Assembly: GCF_030384885.1 (NCBI RefSeq)
Contig: NZ_CP128613.1
DNA length: 64,000 bases
From: Escherichia coli
GTDB taxonomy: Bacteria; Pseudomonadota; Gammaproteobacteria; Enterobacterales; Enterobacteriaceae
Strand: one strand, 5' to 3'
The translations under genes and the position numbers were made by a program. Of this stretch, positions 54,688 through 59,908 are shown one piece after another (position 1 is the first letter of the stretch; each line of letters begins with the position of its first letter). The notes beneath the pieces were generated by a model. The model did no database searches and was not told the origin of the DNA. It saw nothing but the letters and a program-made list of their open reading frames with translations.

Positions 54688-55452
54688 TCAAAAATTAAAT
54701 TTGATGGAGTAGATTATCGCATCCTGGTAAAAATCTTCGCCCAGTTTGTCATCCGCATAACGATACTGAATCCCTGTGGTGATGTGTGAAGTTGCATTCC
54801 ACCAAAGTGCGACGGCACCATTCAGACCTTCTTTGCCGCCATTACCTGCCGCGTAGGTGGCATCACGATCAAACTCGTACTCGTTCCAGTTGGTGAGGGT
54901 GAATTTCTCACTGCCCAGCATAAAGCTGTAACCTGCAACCCAACCGGCGACATAACCGTTATCGCCGGTATAATAGGTTTGGTCTGTATAGCGTTTTGCA
55001 AAGAACGGTTTGAACCACCAACCGCTGCCGGTGAAATTGTAGCCGATCCCGTAAAGGAACATATCGTCATGGAAATTCACACGATTCGCAGAACCGTAGG
55101 TGCCATACGCATGCAAGTAGAGATTAAATCCGGTGTCACCCAGGTAAATACGGTTGGTATTTTTAAATGTATAACGCTGCTCGCTACCCTGTTTATCATG
55201 ACGATCATTATAAAAGTTTTCCCAGTCGAAGAACCCGTACATTTCTCCCCAACTAAAGTTAGCGCCGCCTTCCAGTTCCAGATATCCAAAATCATCTTTG
55301 TGTGATTTGGTCGACGATTTCTCAGTGGTTCTGCTAGTCCAGTCAAGATAATGAATACCTATATCAGCAAAACCGCCTTTAAATTCTGCATGGGATACTG
55401 CTGGTATCGCCAATACAGAAGAGAGTGTCAGAGTAAAAAGATGTTTTTTCAT
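54688..55452 (-). CDS. yfeN: Outer-membrane beta-barrel protein YfeN (Tsx-like)
   Basis: 254-aa ORF with signal peptide and C-terminal ...KFNF; adjacent to xapAB. Confidence 0.8.
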   Translation of the reverse strand: MKKHLFTLTLSSVLAIPAVSHAEFKGGFADIGIHYLDWTSRTTEKSSTKSHKDDFGYLELEGGANFSWGEMYGFFDWENFYNDRHDKQGSEQRYTFKNTNRIYLGDTGFNLYLHAYGTYGSANRVNFHDDMFLYGIGYNFTGSGWWFKPFFAKRYTDQTYYTGDNGYVAGWVAGYSFMLGSEKFTLTNWNEYEFDRDATYAAGNGGKEGLNGAVALWWNATSHITTGIQYRYADDKLGEDFYQDAIIYSIKFNF

Positions 55453-55700
55453 AGCATAATTCCCTATGCCGATCGTTATTAGTTGATTGCTTAATAAAAA
55501 GGTTGATTAAAAGCGGCATATTGTTAATGCAAGGGAAAGGAGAGTACCAATACAGTTTTTTCAGCCTATTAATAGTGAAAAAATATAAATATATCGATAT
55601 CGAATAACTATCGGATACATGAAAAAAGTGTATTGGTATGAGGTAGGGCAATCTCGTTATAAAAAGGCGTTAGATTCCACCCTACAAAAAAAGGATATAT
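55453..55700. promoter_or_regulatory. Divergent yfeN / xapA control region (XapR-dependent xapA promoter expected)
   Basis: 248-bp AT-rich intergenic region; individual sites not resolved. Confidence 0.3.
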
Positions 55701-56534
55701 ATGTATCAGGCTCAGTTTTCTCATAACCCACTGTATTGCGTAGATATTATCAAGACTTATAAACCTGATTTCACGCCACGAGTGGCCTTTATTTTAGGTT
55801 CCGGGCTGGGCGCGCTGGCCGATCAGATTGAGAACGCGGTCGCAATTTCCTACGAAAAGCTGCCTGGGTTCCCGGTAAGTACCGTACACGGTCATGCGGG
55901 TGAGCTGGTGCTGGGTTATCTCCAGGGGGTGCCAGTGGCGTGCATGAAAGGTCGCGGACATTTCTACGAAGGTCGTGGGATGACCATCATGACGGATGCA
56001 ATCCGTACCTTTAAGTTGCTGGGCTGCGAGTTGCTGTTCTGCACCAATGCGGCTGGCTCACTGCGTCCTGAAGTGGGGGCCGGCAGTCTGGTCGCATTGA
56101 AAGATCACATCAACACCATGCCGGGAACGCCGATGGTGGGTCTTAATGATGAACGTTTTGGTGAGCGCTTCTTCTCGCTGGCGAATGCCTACGATGCGGA
56201 ATACCGCGCACTGTTACAAAAAGTGGCGAAAGAAGAGGGGTTCCCTCTGACGGAGGGCGTGTTCGTCTCGTATCCGGGGCCGAATTTCGAGACTGCGGCG
56301 GAAATTCGCATGATGCAAATTATTGGTGGGGATGTTGTTGGTATGTCTGTGGTGCCTGAGGTTATTTCAGCTCGCCATTGCGAACTTAAAGTCGTTGCGG
56401 TCTCTGCGATTACCAACATGGCGGAAGGTCTGAGTGACGTGAAGCTTTCTCATGCCCAAACGCTGGCAGCAGCGGAACTCTCAAAGCAAAACTTTATTAA
56501 TCTTATTTGCGGCTTTCTGCGCAAAATTGCCTGA
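55701..56534 (+). CDS. xapA: Xanthosine phosphorylase (purine nucleoside phosphorylase II)
   Basis: 277-aa ORF; PNP family. Confidence 0.9.
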   Translation: MYQAQFSHNPLYCVDIIKTYKPDFTPRVAFILGSGLGALADQIENAVAISYEKLPGFPVSTVHGHAGELVLGYLQGVPVACMKGRGHFYEGRGMTIMTDAIRTFKLLGCELLFCTNAAGSLRPEVGAGSLVALKDHINTMPGTPMVGLNDERFGERFFSLANAYDAEYRALLQKVAKEEGFPLTEGVFVSYPGPNFETAAEIRMMQIIGGDVVGMSVVPEVISARHCELKVVAVSAITNMAEGLSDVKLSHAQTLAAAELSKQNFINLICGFLRKIA

Positions 56535-56594
56535 GTAAAACAACAATAAACGGCCTCACTGAGTGAGGCCATATGATGCGACAAGGAAACGATT

Positions 56595-57851
56595 ATGAGC
56601 ATCGCTTTGCGCTTAAAGGTAATGTCTTTTTTGCAATATTTTATCTGGGGGAGCTGGCTGGTTACCCTCGGTTCTTACATGATTAATACCCTTCATTTCA
56701 CCGGCGCTAATGTTGGCATGGTTTACAGTTCCAAAGGGATCGCCGCGATTATTATGCCTGGTATAATGGGGATCATCGCAGACAAATGGCTGCGTGCAGA
56801 ACGTGCATACATGCTGTGTCACCTGGTGTGTGCAGGCGTACTTTTTTATGCGGCATCCGTAACTGATCCGGATATGATGTTTTGGGTGATGTTAGTCAAT
56901 GCGATGGCGTTTATGCCGACTATTGCGTTATCGAACAGCGTCTCTTATTCCTGTCTTGCCCAGGCAGGGCTTGACCCGGTGACCGCTTTCCCGCCCATTC
57001 GCGTTTTTGGTACGGTGGGGTTCATTGTCGCCATGTGGGCAGTAAGCCTGCTGCATCTGGAATTGAGTAGTCTGCAACTGTATATCGCGTCCGGTGCGTC
57101 ATTGCTGCTGTCGGCTTATGCGCTGACTTTGCCGAAGATTCCGGTTGCGGAGAAAAAAGCGACTACATCGCTTGCCAGCAAGCTGGGTCTGGATGCCTTC
57201 GTGCTGTTTAAAAATCCACGCATGGCTATCTTTTTCCTCTTCGCCATGATGCTGGGTGCGGTGCTGCAAATTACCAACGTTTTTGGCAACCCGTTCCTGC
57301 ATGATTTCGCCCGTAATCCTGAGTTTGCTGATAGCTTCGTGGTGAAATATCCGTCCATTTTACTGTCAGTTTCACAGATGGCTGAAGTCGGTTTCATTCT
57401 GACGATACCGTTCTTTTTGAAGCGTTTCGGTATTAAAACCGTCATGCTGATGAGTATGGTGGCGTGGACGCTGCGCTTTGGCTTCTTTGCCTATGGCGAT
57501 CCATCACCAACCGGGTTTATTTTGCTGTTGCTGTCGATGATTGTTTACGGTTGTGCATTCGATTTCTTCAATATTTCTGGTTCGGTCTTTGTCGAACAGG
57601 AAGTTGATTCCAGCATTCGTGCCAGCGCCCAGGGCCTTTTTATGACGATGGTAAATGGCGTCGGCGCATGGGTTGGCTCGATTCTGAGCGGTATGGCAGT
57701 GGATTACTTCTCGGTGGATGGCGTAAAAGATTGGCATACCATTTGGCTGATGTTTGCAGGGTATGCTCTTTTCCTCGCAGTGATATTTTTCTTTGGGTTT
57801 AAATATAACCATGACCCTGAAAAGATAACGCATCGTTCAGTTACACATTAA
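56595..57851 (+). CDS. xapB: Xanthosine/nucleoside:H+ symporter (MFS)
   Basis: 418-aa polytopic ORF; NHS-family sequence. Confidence 0.9.
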   Translation: MSIALRLKVMSFLQYFIWGSWLVTLGSYMINTLHFTGANVGMVYSSKGIAAIIMPGIMGIIADKWLRAERAYMLCHLVCAGVLFYAASVTDPDMMFWVMLVNAMAFMPTIALSNSVSYSCLAQAGLDPVTAFPPIRVFGTVGFIVAMWAVSLLHLELSSLQLYIASGASLLLSAYALTLPKIPVAEKKATTSLASKLGLDAFVLFKNPRMAIFFLFAMMLGAVLQITNVFGNPFLHDFARNPEFADSFVVKYPSILLSVSQMAEVGFILTIPFFLKRFGIKTVMLMSMVAWTLRFGFFAYGDPSPTGFILLLLSMIVYGCAFDFFNISGSVFVEQEVDSSIRASAQGLFMTMVNGVGAWVGSILSGMAVDYFSVDGVKDWHTIWLMFAGYALFLAVIFFFGFKYNHDPEKITHRSVTH

Positions 57852-57903
57852 AAGGATTCGCAGCTCTGTTCCTTGGGGCTGCTTTTATGATAAAGGTTAA
57901 TTA

Positions 57904-58062
57904 GTGAAAGATATTTTATTTTCTTCTGGCGTTGGTTTTGGCATTGGTGCTTTGTTTACAATCGTGCGATTACCTATTCCTGTTCCAAATGTATTGCCGG
58001 GTATATTATCCATCGTGTTTATGTATGTCGGATATCTGGTGGTGAAATACTTTATGCCATGA
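57904..58062 (+). CDS. Candidate small two-helix membrane protein (XapX-like, 52 aa)
   Basis: GTG-initiated ORF VKDILFSSGVGFGIGALFTIVRLPIPVPNVLPGILSIVFMYVGYLVVKYFMP with two hydrophobic segments, between xapB and xapR. Confidence 0.45.
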   Translation: MKDILFSSGVGFGIGALFTIVRLPIPVPNVLPGILSIVFMYVGYLVVKYFMP

Positions 58063-58102
58063 TAATTTAATACGATGTATTTTTTATATGGAGCACTTAA
58101 TT

Positions 58103-58987
58103 ATGGAACGCGTATATAGAACAGATCTTAAGTTGCTCCGTTATTTTCTTGCCGTAGCGGAAGAGTTGCATTTTGGTCGCGCAGCAGCGCGTTTAAATAT
58201 GTCTCAGCCTCCGCTCAGTATTCATATTAAAGAGCTGGAAAATCAACTCGGCACGCAGCTTTTTATTCGCCATTCGCGCAGCGTCGTACTGACACACGCG
58301 GGCAAAATCTTGATGGAAGAATCGCGTCGATTGCTGGTGAATGCAAATAATATATTGGCTCGGGTTGAACAAATAGGTCGGGGAGAAGCAGGGCGGATTG
58401 AACTCGGGGTTGTGGGAACGGCAATGTGGGGACGGATGCGCCCGGTTATGCGGCGATTCCTTAGAGAAAATCCTAACGTTGAAGTTCTGTTTCGCGAAAA
58501 GATGCCCGCGATGCAAATGGCCTTGCTGGAACGCCGCGAACTTGATGCCGGGATCTGGCGAATGGCGACAGAACCACCGACTGGTTTTACCAGCTTACGG
58601 TTGCATGAATCGGCGTTTCTGGTGGCGATGCCTGAAGAGCATCATCTCTCATCATTTTCCACCGTCCCGCTGGAAGCGCTACGTGACGAGTATTTCGTTA
58701 CAATGCCGCCCGTGTACACTGACTGGGATTTTTTGCAGCGAGTTTGCCAGCAGGTGGGATTTTCACCGGTTGTTATTCGCGAAGTTAATGAACCGCAAAC
58801 GGTACTCGCCATGGTCAGTATGGGTATTGGTATCACATTGATAGCGGACAGCTACGCGCAGATGAACTGGCCCGGTGTCATATTCCGTCCGCTCAAAGAA
58901 CGCATCCCGGCAGACTTATATATTGTTTATGAAACGCAGCAGGTGACGCCCGCGCTGGTTAAACTGCTGGCGGCGTTGGCGCAGTAG
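58103..58987 (+). CDS. xapR: LysR-family activator of xapAB
   Basis: Start placed at MERVYRTDLKLLRYF (ATG 58103); LysR HTH; synteny. Confidence 0.85.
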   Translation: MERVYRTDLKLLRYFLAVAEELHFGRAAARLNMSQPPLSIHIKELENQLGTQLFIRHSRSVVLTHAGKILMEESRRLLVNANNILARVEQIGRGEAGRIELGVVGTAMWGRMRPVMRRFLRENPNVEVLFREKMPAMQMALLERRELDAGIWRMATEPPTGFTSLRLHESAFLVAMPEEHHLSSFSTVPLEALRDEYFVTMPPVYTDWDFLQRVCQQVGFSPVVIREVNEPQTVLAMVSMGIGITLIADSYAQMNWPGVIFRPLKERIPADLYIVYETQQVTPALVKLLAALAQ

Positions 58988-59056
58988 ATGAGAGGCACGG
59001 GAACTGCCGGACATAGTTGGTCTGATAAGCGAAGCGCATCAGGCAATTTCGCAAAT

Positions 59057-59113
59057 TGCAGATAGCAAAAAAGCGCCTTTAGGGCGCTTTTTTACATTGG
59101 TGGGTCGTGCAGG
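59057..59113 (-). repeat. 57-bp direct-repeat copy: terminator hairpin plus the 3'-terminal 16 nt of tRNA-Lys (partner copy at 59213-59269)
   Basis: Identical 57-mer gcagatagcaaaaaagcgcctttagggcgcttttttacattggtgggtcgtgcagga at both positions. Confidence 0.85.
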
Positions 59114-59253
59114 ATGACTCGCTTCGCTCGCCCTTCGGGCCGTCGCCGCGAGCGGCTCCGTTGTTTCGCTGCGCTCAACTCGAACCTGCTGCAGGTTCGA
59201 ATCTTTGAGTATCGCAGATAGCAAAAAAGCGCCTTTAGGGCGCTTTTTTACAT

Positions 59254-59329
59254 TGGTGGGTCGTGCAGGATTCGAACCTGCGACCAATTGATTAAAAGTC
59301 AACTGCTCTACCAACTGAGCTAACGACCC
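59254..59329 (-). tRNA. lysV: tRNA-Lys (anticodon UUU)
   Basis: Reverse complement matches GGGTCGTTAGCTCAGTTGGTAGAGCAGTTGACTTTTAATCAATTGGTCGCAGGTTCGAATCCTGCACGACCCACCA. Confidence 0.95.
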
Positions 59330-59333
59330 GAAG

Positions 59334-59409
59334 TGGTGGGTGATGACGGGATCGAACCGCCGACCCCCTCCTTGTAAGGGAGGTGCTCTCCCAGCTGAGC
59401 TAATCACCC
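59334..59409 (-). tRNA. valY: tRNA-Val (anticodon UAC)
   Basis: Reverse complement matches GGGTGATTAGCTCAGCTGGGAGAGCACCTCCCTTACAAGGAGGGGGTCGGCGGTTCGATCCCGTCATCACCCACCA; gene name by position. Confidence 0.95.
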
Positions 59410-59455
59410 ACTTCGGTACTTCACATTTTTACAAGAAATCTAGCTGGCGAGAAAG

Positions 59456-59531
59456 TGGTGGGTGATGACGGGATCGAACCGCCGACCCCCTCCTTGTAAG
59501 GGAGGTGCTCTCCCAGCTGAGCTAATCACCC
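59456..59531 (-). tRNA. valX: tRNA-Val (anticodon UAC)
   Basis: Identical 76-nt tRNA-Val sequence; gene name by position. Confidence 0.95.
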
Positions 59532-59574
59532 ACTTCTCAATTTCTTGCTACACGGCGGAGACTACATAAGTAGT

Positions 59575-59650
59575 TGGTGGGTGATGACGGGATCGAACCG
59601 CCGACCCCCTCCTTGTAAGGGAGGTGCTCTCCCAGCTGAGCTAATCACCC
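59575..59650 (-). tRNA. valU: tRNA-Val (anticodon UAC)
   Basis: Identical 76-nt tRNA-Val sequence; gene name by position. Confidence 0.95.
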
Positions 59651-59908
59651 CCGCTGTGTGGAGTCGCATTATAGGGAGAGTTCAAAATGAGTCAACGCAT
59701 TTTCTAAAGAAATTGTTCGTTCGTCGTAAATTTAAGCAAGATGATCGCAAAACAGACCGTGTTGCGCAATTTCTCAACGAAAACAATAATGCATCATGTA
59801 GCAACCCGAACTACATTGAGGAATCAGGCGGGAGTGATAGAATATCGCCCACTCAATTTTTCCAGGATTTGCCGGTTGTCGGCATCTTTCTAAACGTAAG
59901 GCCATTTC

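Follow-up and report, generated by a model that had tools for sequence, protein, structure and literature searches.

A conserved small gene, xapX, in the xanthosine cassette of Escherichia coli, and the recurrence of its family in nucleoside utilization clusters

RESULTS

A 52-codon frame lies between xapB and xapR.

The xap genes of Escherichia coli form a textbook inducible operon, and we describe here xapX, a small open reading frame (ORF) in the spacer between the xanthosine permease gene, xapB, and the regulator gene, xapR. The DNA analyzed, which we refer to as the window, is a stretch of 64,000 nucleotides from E. coli (contig NZ_CP128613.1 of RefSeq assembly GCF_030384885.1). A previous reading made from the letters alone (the sequence-only reading) had described a 52-codon, GTG-initiated frame in a 250-bp gap between the two genes. 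This description held: the frame lies exactly at 57904..58062 on the plus strand and ends in TGA, and the gap, from the xapB stop at 57851 to the xapR start at 58103 called by the Prokaryotic Genome Annotation Pipeline (PGAP), measures 251 bp.

A Shine-Dalgarno sequence, AAGG (57893..57896, plus strand), can be read 7 nt 5' of the GTG codon, and an N-terminal extension is barred because an in-frame TAA (57898-57900) stands just upstream of the start. AAGG or AGGAGG and the start codon align in E. coli, Salmonella, Citrobacter, and Chimaeribacter; in Salmonella, an ATG occupies the place of the GTG. In the product, MKDILFSSGVGFGIGALFTIVRLPIPVPNVLPGILSIVFMYVGYLVVKYFMP, a proline-rich turn joins two hydrophobic, glycine-rich stretches. 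As a predicted two-helix membrane hairpin, it falls in the XapX domain family.

xapX is almost certainly a protein-coding gene.

The length of the frame could by itself be due to chance: the ORF listing has 75 entries of at least 25 aa that overlap the 5.5 kb around xapX. What sets xapX beyond chance is its score against a family model and its pattern of conservation. The XapX protein matches the NCBIfam model TIGR03510 (XapX) with 64.2 bits (E = 5.8e-18; curated cutoff, 27.8), with residues 4 to 50 aligned to positions 2 to 48 of the 49 in the model. This profile search bore out the mention, in the sequence-only reading, of a XapX family annotated beside xapB, and it places the membership of the protein in that family virtually beyond doubt. 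E. coli XapX is a direct member that shares the two-helix layout and the LP[IV]P[AV]P turn with members from Vibrio, Bacillus, Exiguobacterium, Rubritalea, and Pandoraea.

Conservation acts at the level of amino acids. Between the window and E. coli K-12, xapX has seven nucleotide differences, and 7/7 are synonymous. In the flanking spacer, 6 of 52 positions differ; xapA, xapB, and xapR diverge by 3.6 to 7.8%, and divergence from K-12 around xapX is 4 to 11%. Among Escherichia, Salmonella, Citrobacter, and Chimaeribacter, the ratio of nonsynonymous to synonymous substitution rates (dN/dS) for xapX is ~0.06 to 0.2, with synonymous sites near saturation, and the ratios for xapA, xapB, and xapR fall in the same range. 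The sequence-only reading had named stops or frameshifts in close relatives as evidence against the gene; across nine enterobacterial genera there were none, and the xapX frame was the sole stop-free frame of the six. Variable columns in these genera are distributed over codon positions 1, 2, and 3 as 23:14:45. Ten enteric homologues share 24 of 52 residues, including the whole RLPIPxPxVLPG turn, and the exact protein is present on at least 1,000 contigs. On this comparative evidence, we consider it very highly probable that xapX is a real protein-coding gene.

Two overlapping ORFs were considered as genes and rejected, one on the same strand (57932-58045, plus) and one antisense (57897-58013, minus). 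Both carry amino acid changes between the window and K-12, and both gain stops or lose starts in other genera. An Rfam search of 57700-58250 found no credible family match to account for the conservation. No xapX entry (by the coordinates 2522518/2522676, gene names, or peptide) was found in the searchable text of the supplementary tables of three E. coli ribosome-profiling studies; these studies applied a 50-aa limit, which XapX, at 52 aa, just exceeds, and the xap genes are uninduced without xanthosine.

Some E. coli and Shigella records hold a xapX that is shortened, frameshifted, or fused (protein-database entries P0021, P0025, P0034, and P0068), and in NZ_CM177009.1 the match to a 601-bp query spans just 38 bp at the xapR end. 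These odd versions may be natural deletions, pseudogenes, or sequencing errors.

xapX is annotated in RefSeq genomes and missing from the curated K-12 record.

The sequence-only reading had called the frame unlisted. This is true of the curated K-12 record, NC_000913.3, which lists no gene between xapR (b2405) and xapB (b2406) and yet carries an intact xapX ORF at complement(2522518..2522676). It is not true of RefSeq E. coli genomes annotated by PGAP, where a coding sequence (CDS) named "DUF1427 family protein" (WP_000651752.1) stands at the same coordinates as xapX. PGAP lists it in strain 2013C-4282, whose record is identical to the window, and in a K-12 derivative, and the WP_000651752.1 CDS is present in 29 of 29 full-length matches sampled down the ranking. 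XapX is already known as a family member, is annotated in thousands of genomes, and is in effect the namesake of TIGR03510.

The XapX domain of TIGR03510 is the short form of Pfam PF07235 (DUF1427), and its name comes from its position beside the xap genes. The sequence-only reading had proposed a DUF1427 profile search, and here the E. coli protein failed to match: a Pfam scan returned no hit to PF07235 even at E ≤ 10 (gathering threshold, 27.1 bits). For this reason, the name given by PGAP is not reproduced for this sequence by the current Pfam model, and the DUF1427 link of E. coli XapX runs through its relatives. Among 39 of these, 35 match PF07235 (best E = 1.6e-7). Ten relatives, all short forms except one of 71 aa (P0058), align to positions 1 to 50 of the 84 in the model with 16 to 27 bits, so that short-form matches fall just under the threshold.

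A literature search on XapX and DUF1427 found no functional study. A domain census from 2005 proposed that DUF1427 is related to plant association (PMC554113), an idea that the distribution seen in our genome comparisons does not support. The only other mention found was an entry in a gene list for Citrobacter koseri.

XapX is predicted to form a hairpin of two transmembrane helices.

The two hydrophobic helices described by the sequence-only reading reappeared in structure prediction. AlphaFold2, run with a 39-sequence family alignment, modeled XapX as a helical hairpin (mean predicted local distance difference test score [pLDDT], 94.6) with helices at residues 2 to 20 and 31 to 50 and a proline-rich turn at residues 21 to 30. 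Among the 39 diverse members of the alignment, P26, P28, and G43 are invariant, and G11, G15, L23, P24, and I37 are nearly so. The glycines are spaced as G11xxxG15 in helix 1 and, in most members, as GxxGxxGxxxG in helix 2; enteric XapX has S36 and F39 where most members have the helix 2 glycines G36 and G39.

Based on the model, XapX would sit in the inner membrane. The charges of short-form XapX are ambiguous for topology. The long-form relatives carry ~2.9 Lys/Arg residues in a C-terminal tail, from which, by the positive-inside rule, we infer that both termini are cytoplasmic and that the proline-rich turn lies on the outer face.

Searches for relatives of known structure gave little. A profile search of the Protein Data Bank (PDB) returned one chance-level match (E = 0.53), and Foldseek found no fold relative in the PDB. 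Weak profile matches were recurrent: 10 family members hit SpoVAB (best E = 7e-5), and 4 hit the LydA holin family; in the Pfam scan, the E. coli protein itself matched neither. We rejected membership in the SpoVAB or holin families because these scores are far under curated cutoffs (e.g., 14 bits versus 25) and may reflect hydrophobic composition. A role as a holin or type I toxin was likewise without support: the window holds no lysis cassette or phage context, no Rfam partner was found in 57700-58250, and the antisense ORF is not conserved. Holins (Pfam Phage_holin_3_3, LydA) and SpoVAB resemble XapX in size and hydrophobic hairpin, and one family member lies in a phage-like block; however, strong purifying selection in a catabolic cassette, as seen for xapX, is atypical of holins.

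xapX accompanies xapB in enterobacterial xap cassettes.

The cassette in the window begins with xapA, encoding xanthosine phosphorylase (55701..56534, plus strand), followed by xapB, encoding the xanthosine:H+ symporter of the NHS family in the major facilitator superfamily (MFS) (56595..57851, plus strand), which lies directly upstream of xapX. The LysR-type activator gene of xapAB, xapR (58103..58987, plus strand), starts 40 nt after the xapX stop. Divergent from xapA is yfeN (54688..55452, minus strand), annotated "OmpK," whose product belongs to the Tsx family of outer membrane nucleoside channels (Pfam Channel_Tsx, 151.6 bits). Because yfeN is a Tsx-family gene, the locus combines an outer membrane channel, a phosphorylase, an inner membrane permease, XapX, and a regulator, and by gene content it looks like a complete nucleoside route from the outer membrane to the cytoplasm.

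In addition to the window, seven further enterobacterial genera have xapX between xapB and xapR. The order xapA-xapB-xapX-xapR is kept in Salmonella (serovar Portland), Citrobacter enshiensis, and Chimaeribacter, where the xap block lies between metG and AraC/rha genes and not beside gltX, and it is also found in Pseudocitrobacter, Entomohabitans, Phytobacter, and Pragia, the last with deoC inserted before xapR. An NHS permease gene immediately precedes xapX at 7/7 enterobacterial loci, and a LysR gene lies 3' of it in all enteric loci, in Pragia after the intervening deoC. By its position, XapB is the most likely membrane partner of XapX. In Pragia fontium (locus L027, 6001-6950 and flanks), deoB lies upstream of xapA-xapB-xapX, and deoC overlaps the end of xapX by 16 nt and precedes xapR; xap and deo functions are physically merged there around xapX.

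Among 5,426 complete E. coli genomes, xapB was found in 4,088 and the xapX region in 4,086, with a median of one xapX copy per genome having any. The region is missing from about a quarter of complete E. coli genomes and falls into two deep allele classes, with 1,400 records at ≥99% identity and 2,422 at 90 to 95%. Compared with K-12, the window diverges by 5 to 15% per 300 bp through yfeN-xapA-xapB-xapX (54700-58000), except for one 1% stretch in xapB, and divergence drops to 1 to 3% through xapR and gltX, except for 8% in the spacer between xapR and the tRNA genes (58900-59199). This sequence pattern points to an old boundary, of recombination or import, near the junction of xapX and xapR. 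Downstream of xapR lie a lysV-valY-valX-valU tRNA cluster and a PGAP-annotated "RtT sRNA" (59098-59651, minus strand), and repeated peptides in the ORF listing (…GRAPPLQGGGRRFDPVITH…) are translations of the repeated tRNA-related sequences.

A terminator-like hairpin precedes xapX.

A terminator-like hairpin on the plus strand (57860..57889) separates the xapB stop from the xapX Shine-Dalgarno sequence, with a 9-bp stem and a 5-nt loop (57860-57882) followed by TTTTAT. Its folding energy, ~-13 kcal/mol, is not unusually stable relative to shuffles of the 66-nt stretch (z = -0.53). Escherichia, Salmonella, Pseudocitrobacter, and Phytobacter all keep the stem and T-run; the changes seen are all one-sided (wobble), and none forms a compensatory pair. 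The hairpin is probably a leaky terminator or a 3'-stabilizing structure for the xapAB mRNA. The distance from the T-run to the Shine-Dalgarno sequence is too short to hold a promoter, and xapX would therefore be transcribed by readthrough from the xanthosine-induced xapA promoter or from a promoter in the 3' end of xapB.

The source of xapR transcription also bears on this spacer. According to the account of Seeger et al. (1995) cited in PMC7205307, xapR is constitutive and not autoregulated. With an interval of just 40 nt between xapX and xapR, the promoter of xapR has to be located within or 5' of xapX. A sigma70 consensus scan of 57500-58300 found no promoter; in a relaxed scan, the best candidates had 8 of 12 matches, and the best placed has a -10 element, TATTAT, that ends at 58009, inside xapX. 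Genomic systematic evolution of ligands by exponential enrichment (SELEX) detected an in vitro binding peak for RNA polymerase-sigma54 in the xapB-xapR spacer, assigned to xapR (PMC8743547). In current coordinates, this peak falls in the 3' part of xapX (spacer 57852-58102 corresponds to NC_000913.3 2522478-2522728), and a search of the spacer for the sigma54 GG-N10-GC core found none.

XapX-domain genes recur in nucleoside utilization clusters.

We surveyed the wider family in two ways. An exhaustive profile search gave 75 cluster representatives at E ≤ 1e-3, and a scan of reference genomes, seeded with the single turn pattern LPIP[AV]P[NPT]V[LF][PGA] and so sampling part of the family, gave 69 loci. 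Neighboring genes were called by a simple greedy ORF picker (crude, especially at high GC), clustered by BLASTP, and assigned through Pfam searches of cluster representatives; the resulting counts are uncorrected for phylogeny. The 69 loci span Enterobacterales, Burkholderiales, Alphaproteobacteria, Vibrionaceae, Oceanospirillales, Bacillota, Verrucomicrobiota, and others, and all 69 frames are intact. Ten representatives covering all context groups score 57 to 78 bits against TIGR03510, and all pass.

At 25 of the 69 loci, nucleoside genes, confirmed by Pfam, lie within four genes of the family member. Seven of these are the enteric xap clusters. Eleven loci from Vibrio and Photobacterium, and one from an uncultured Enterobacterales genome, have the order tatD-nupC-X-deoC-deoA-deoB-deoD (X, the family member), where nupC encodes a CNT-type carrier, and two Endozoicomonas/Oceanospirillales loci have nupC-X. 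In Bacillales, the arrangements are pdp-deoC-X-cdd (Bacillus taeanensis), pdp-X with the genes 15 nt apart (Ammoniphilus), X followed by two PNP-family genes (two Bacillus loci), and X beside an NHS permease gene on the opposite strand (one Mesobacillus locus, L067). At 20 of these 25 loci, the family member lies 3' of a nucleoside transporter gene on the same strand, and what separates the two is never more than a single short, probably spurious ORF. What is new here, as judged from gene neighborhoods, is that XapX-domain genes recur in nucleoside utilization clusters of at least four designs, across phyla and including clusters with CNT-type carriers.

Other members have other neighbors. Long forms (~60 to 93 aa) lie beside formamidase/acetamidase genes at 16 of 26 loci. 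In Pandoraea, Oxalicibacterium, and Afipia, the long-form DUF1427 gene is followed by a conserved ORF of 63 to 64 aa with no Pfam match and then by the formamidase/acetamidase gene, and at least one long-form formamidase locus has a GntR/FCD regulator gene upstream (examples of long forms are L018 151-1833, L019 1384-2269, and L028-L045). Ten Exiguobacterium genomes (L080-L089) have ppx-ppk-X, with X 68 to 81 nt after ppk and a convergent feoB just downstream in 8/10; because they come from a single genus, we count them as one event. Further contexts are after an FMN reductase gene, at the end of a sugar-catabolic operon, before rlmH, and in a phage-like block. In the last, a 51-aa member (L020 3065-3220) shares a tight block with other small ORFs and with recA-like and MazG-like genes; the block looks phage derived. 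In core identity, enteric XapX stands at 52% to the formamidase-linked long forms and 49% to the Vibrio forms.

DISCUSSION

The explanation of all the evidence toward which we lean, with modest confidence, is that xapX is real and encodes an accessory inner membrane subunit of nucleoside uptake or catabolism. The xapX message would arise from the xanthosine-induced xapA promoter by readthrough of the weak hairpin terminator after xapB, and translation of XapX would begin at the GTG codon behind its own Shine-Dalgarno sequence. It would insert into the inner membrane as two transmembrane helices joined by the conserved turn RLPIPxPNVLPG and would act on the permease encoded upstream, XapB in the xap cassette and a NupC-type carrier in Vibrionaceae. 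Gene context makes a tie to nucleoside utilization in general rather probable. A direct accessory role at the permease is a more tentative proposal, drawn by analogy, and one that we hold to be possible at best. We favor it among the specific roles because 20 of 25 nucleoside-linked members follow a transporter gene, a layout shared with small proteins that tune transporters.

By this analogy, XapX most plausibly works like the KdpF/AcrZ class. It resembles KdpF, AcrZ, CydX, and MgtS, as generally known, in its size of ~50 aa, in being membrane embedded, and in being encoded after a large transporter gene. It differs in having two transmembrane helices, whereas those proteins mostly have one, and no PDB relative of XapX was found by sequence or fold.

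Several observations weigh against an accessory subunit of nucleoside permeases. The folds of XapB (MFS) and NupC (CNT) are unrelated, so that it is not obvious why one specific mode of binding should serve both, and in E. coli neither NupG nor NupC has anything like XapX beside it. Coexpression with xapB is not assured, given the terminator-like hairpin between the two genes, and in Vibrionaceae the family member lies ~130 to 570 bp from both of its neighbors. At four Bacillales loci, its neighbors are cytoplasmic nucleoside enzymes and no transporter gene is close by, and many family members occur in contexts unrelated to nucleosides (formamidase, ppx-ppk, FMN reductase, sugar catabolism, rlmH, and phage-like). 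The literature we found holds no experimental demonstration of XapX translation, membrane insertion, or phenotype.

The alternatives fall into those that deny the peptide a function and those that assign it a different one. That xapX is merely a chance ORF in an AT-rich spacer would fit the abundance of short ORFs (75 of at least 25 aa per 5.5 kb), its omission from the curated K-12 record, and the lack of any expression data found. This idea retains a negligible probability: the TIGR03510 score is more than twice the cutoff, the frame is whole in nine genera where overlapping ORFs break, and synteny is kept. As far as comparative data can decide, it is already refuted by the family score, the 7/7 synonymous changes from K-12, the dN/dS of 0.06 to 0.2, and the open-frame pattern. 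A regulatory upstream ORF, whose translation opens or couples xapR or modulates the hairpin and whose peptide is irrelevant, would account for a frame that starts directly after the hairpin and ends 40 nt before xapR. It would also suit a region that must hold or follow the xapR promoter, for which weak matches only were found, the best placed inside xapX, and to which the in vitro sigma54 peak maps (PMC8743547). Nevertheless, selection acts on the amino acids (dN/dS of 0.06 to 0.2, with 24/52 residues invariant), and the same domain is kept in unrelated operons that lack xapR; for these two reasons, we exclude a purely regulatory upstream ORF. In addition, the distance from xapX to xapR ranges from 7 to 119 nt (by our own gene calls, which do not always use the PGAP xapR start), and in Pragia deoC intervenes. 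We therefore regard this alternative as highly improbable.

The remaining alternatives accept a functional membrane protein. XapX could self-assemble into a homo-oligomeric pore for a small polar solute, such as, in nucleoside clusters, the free base that phosphorolysis leaves or, in formamidase clusters, the amide or its products, and act independently of the permease. The glycine zipper-like helices (G11xxxG15 and GxxGxxGxxxG) are suggestive of such packing, and a pore would make sense of a family that adjoins two unrelated transporter folds, that appears at Bacillales loci lacking a nearby transporter, and whose formamidase, FMN reductase, and sugar-catabolic operons share only small-solute turnover; the weak recurrent matches to SpoVAB (10 members) and the LydA holin (4 members) point the same way. 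However, those matches are far below cutoffs and may reflect hydrophobic composition, enteric XapX has lost two of the helix 2 glycines (S36 and F39), and a two-helix unit of 52 residues with almost no extramembrane mass would be an unusual transporter; we judge the pore unlikely. Slightly less likely still is a real small membrane protein whose function, for instance in general membrane or stress physiology, is unrelated to nucleosides and whose position reflects gene order history or coexpression. In its favor, 44 of the 69 loci have no nearby nucleoside gene and the contexts vary greatly, the search for loci started from a single turn pattern and covers part of the family only, and enteric XapX is about equally close to formamidase-linked (52%) and Vibrio (49%) forms. 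Yet nucleoside genes make up far less than 1% of a genome, and XapX genes join them in at least four cluster designs in Enterobacterales, Vibrionales, Oceanospirillales, and Bacillales. In Chimaeribacter, moreover, xapA-xapB-xapX-xapR moved elsewhere as a unit, and in E. coli the presence and absence of xapX track xapB almost perfectly.

More speculatively, and at a probability we consider low, XapX hairpins could be an unrecognized membrane component of nucleoside utilization, recruited repeatedly, from Proteobacteria to Bacillota, beside unrelated carriers (MFS XapB and CNT NupC) and nucleoside phosphorylases. They would serve either as a small regulatory subunit universal to nucleoside permeases or as a minimal two-helix channel for release of the base freed by phosphorolysis, with the formamidase-linked long forms serving likewise for small amides.

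The cassette in which xapX lies is well studied: transporter-mediated genetic switching has been modeled quantitatively with the xap system (PMC7205307). A fourth conserved gene of the cassette, missing from the curated K-12 record, is overlooked in models and knockouts of xapAB and xapR, and constructs that remove or replace the xapB-xapR spacer delete a conserved, predicted membrane protein and possibly also the xapR promoter. For curators and researchers of small proteins, xapX joins an annotation gap in K-12, a location in a model operon, and an association with nucleoside clusters across phyla. The practical outcome is modest, namely, the addition of xapX to the K-12 annotation. If XapX tunes neither nucleoside permeases nor base efflux, it would be one more conserved small membrane protein. 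If it does tune either of them, it would reveal a layer of small proteins in the nucleoside salvage of enterics, vibrios, and bacilli.

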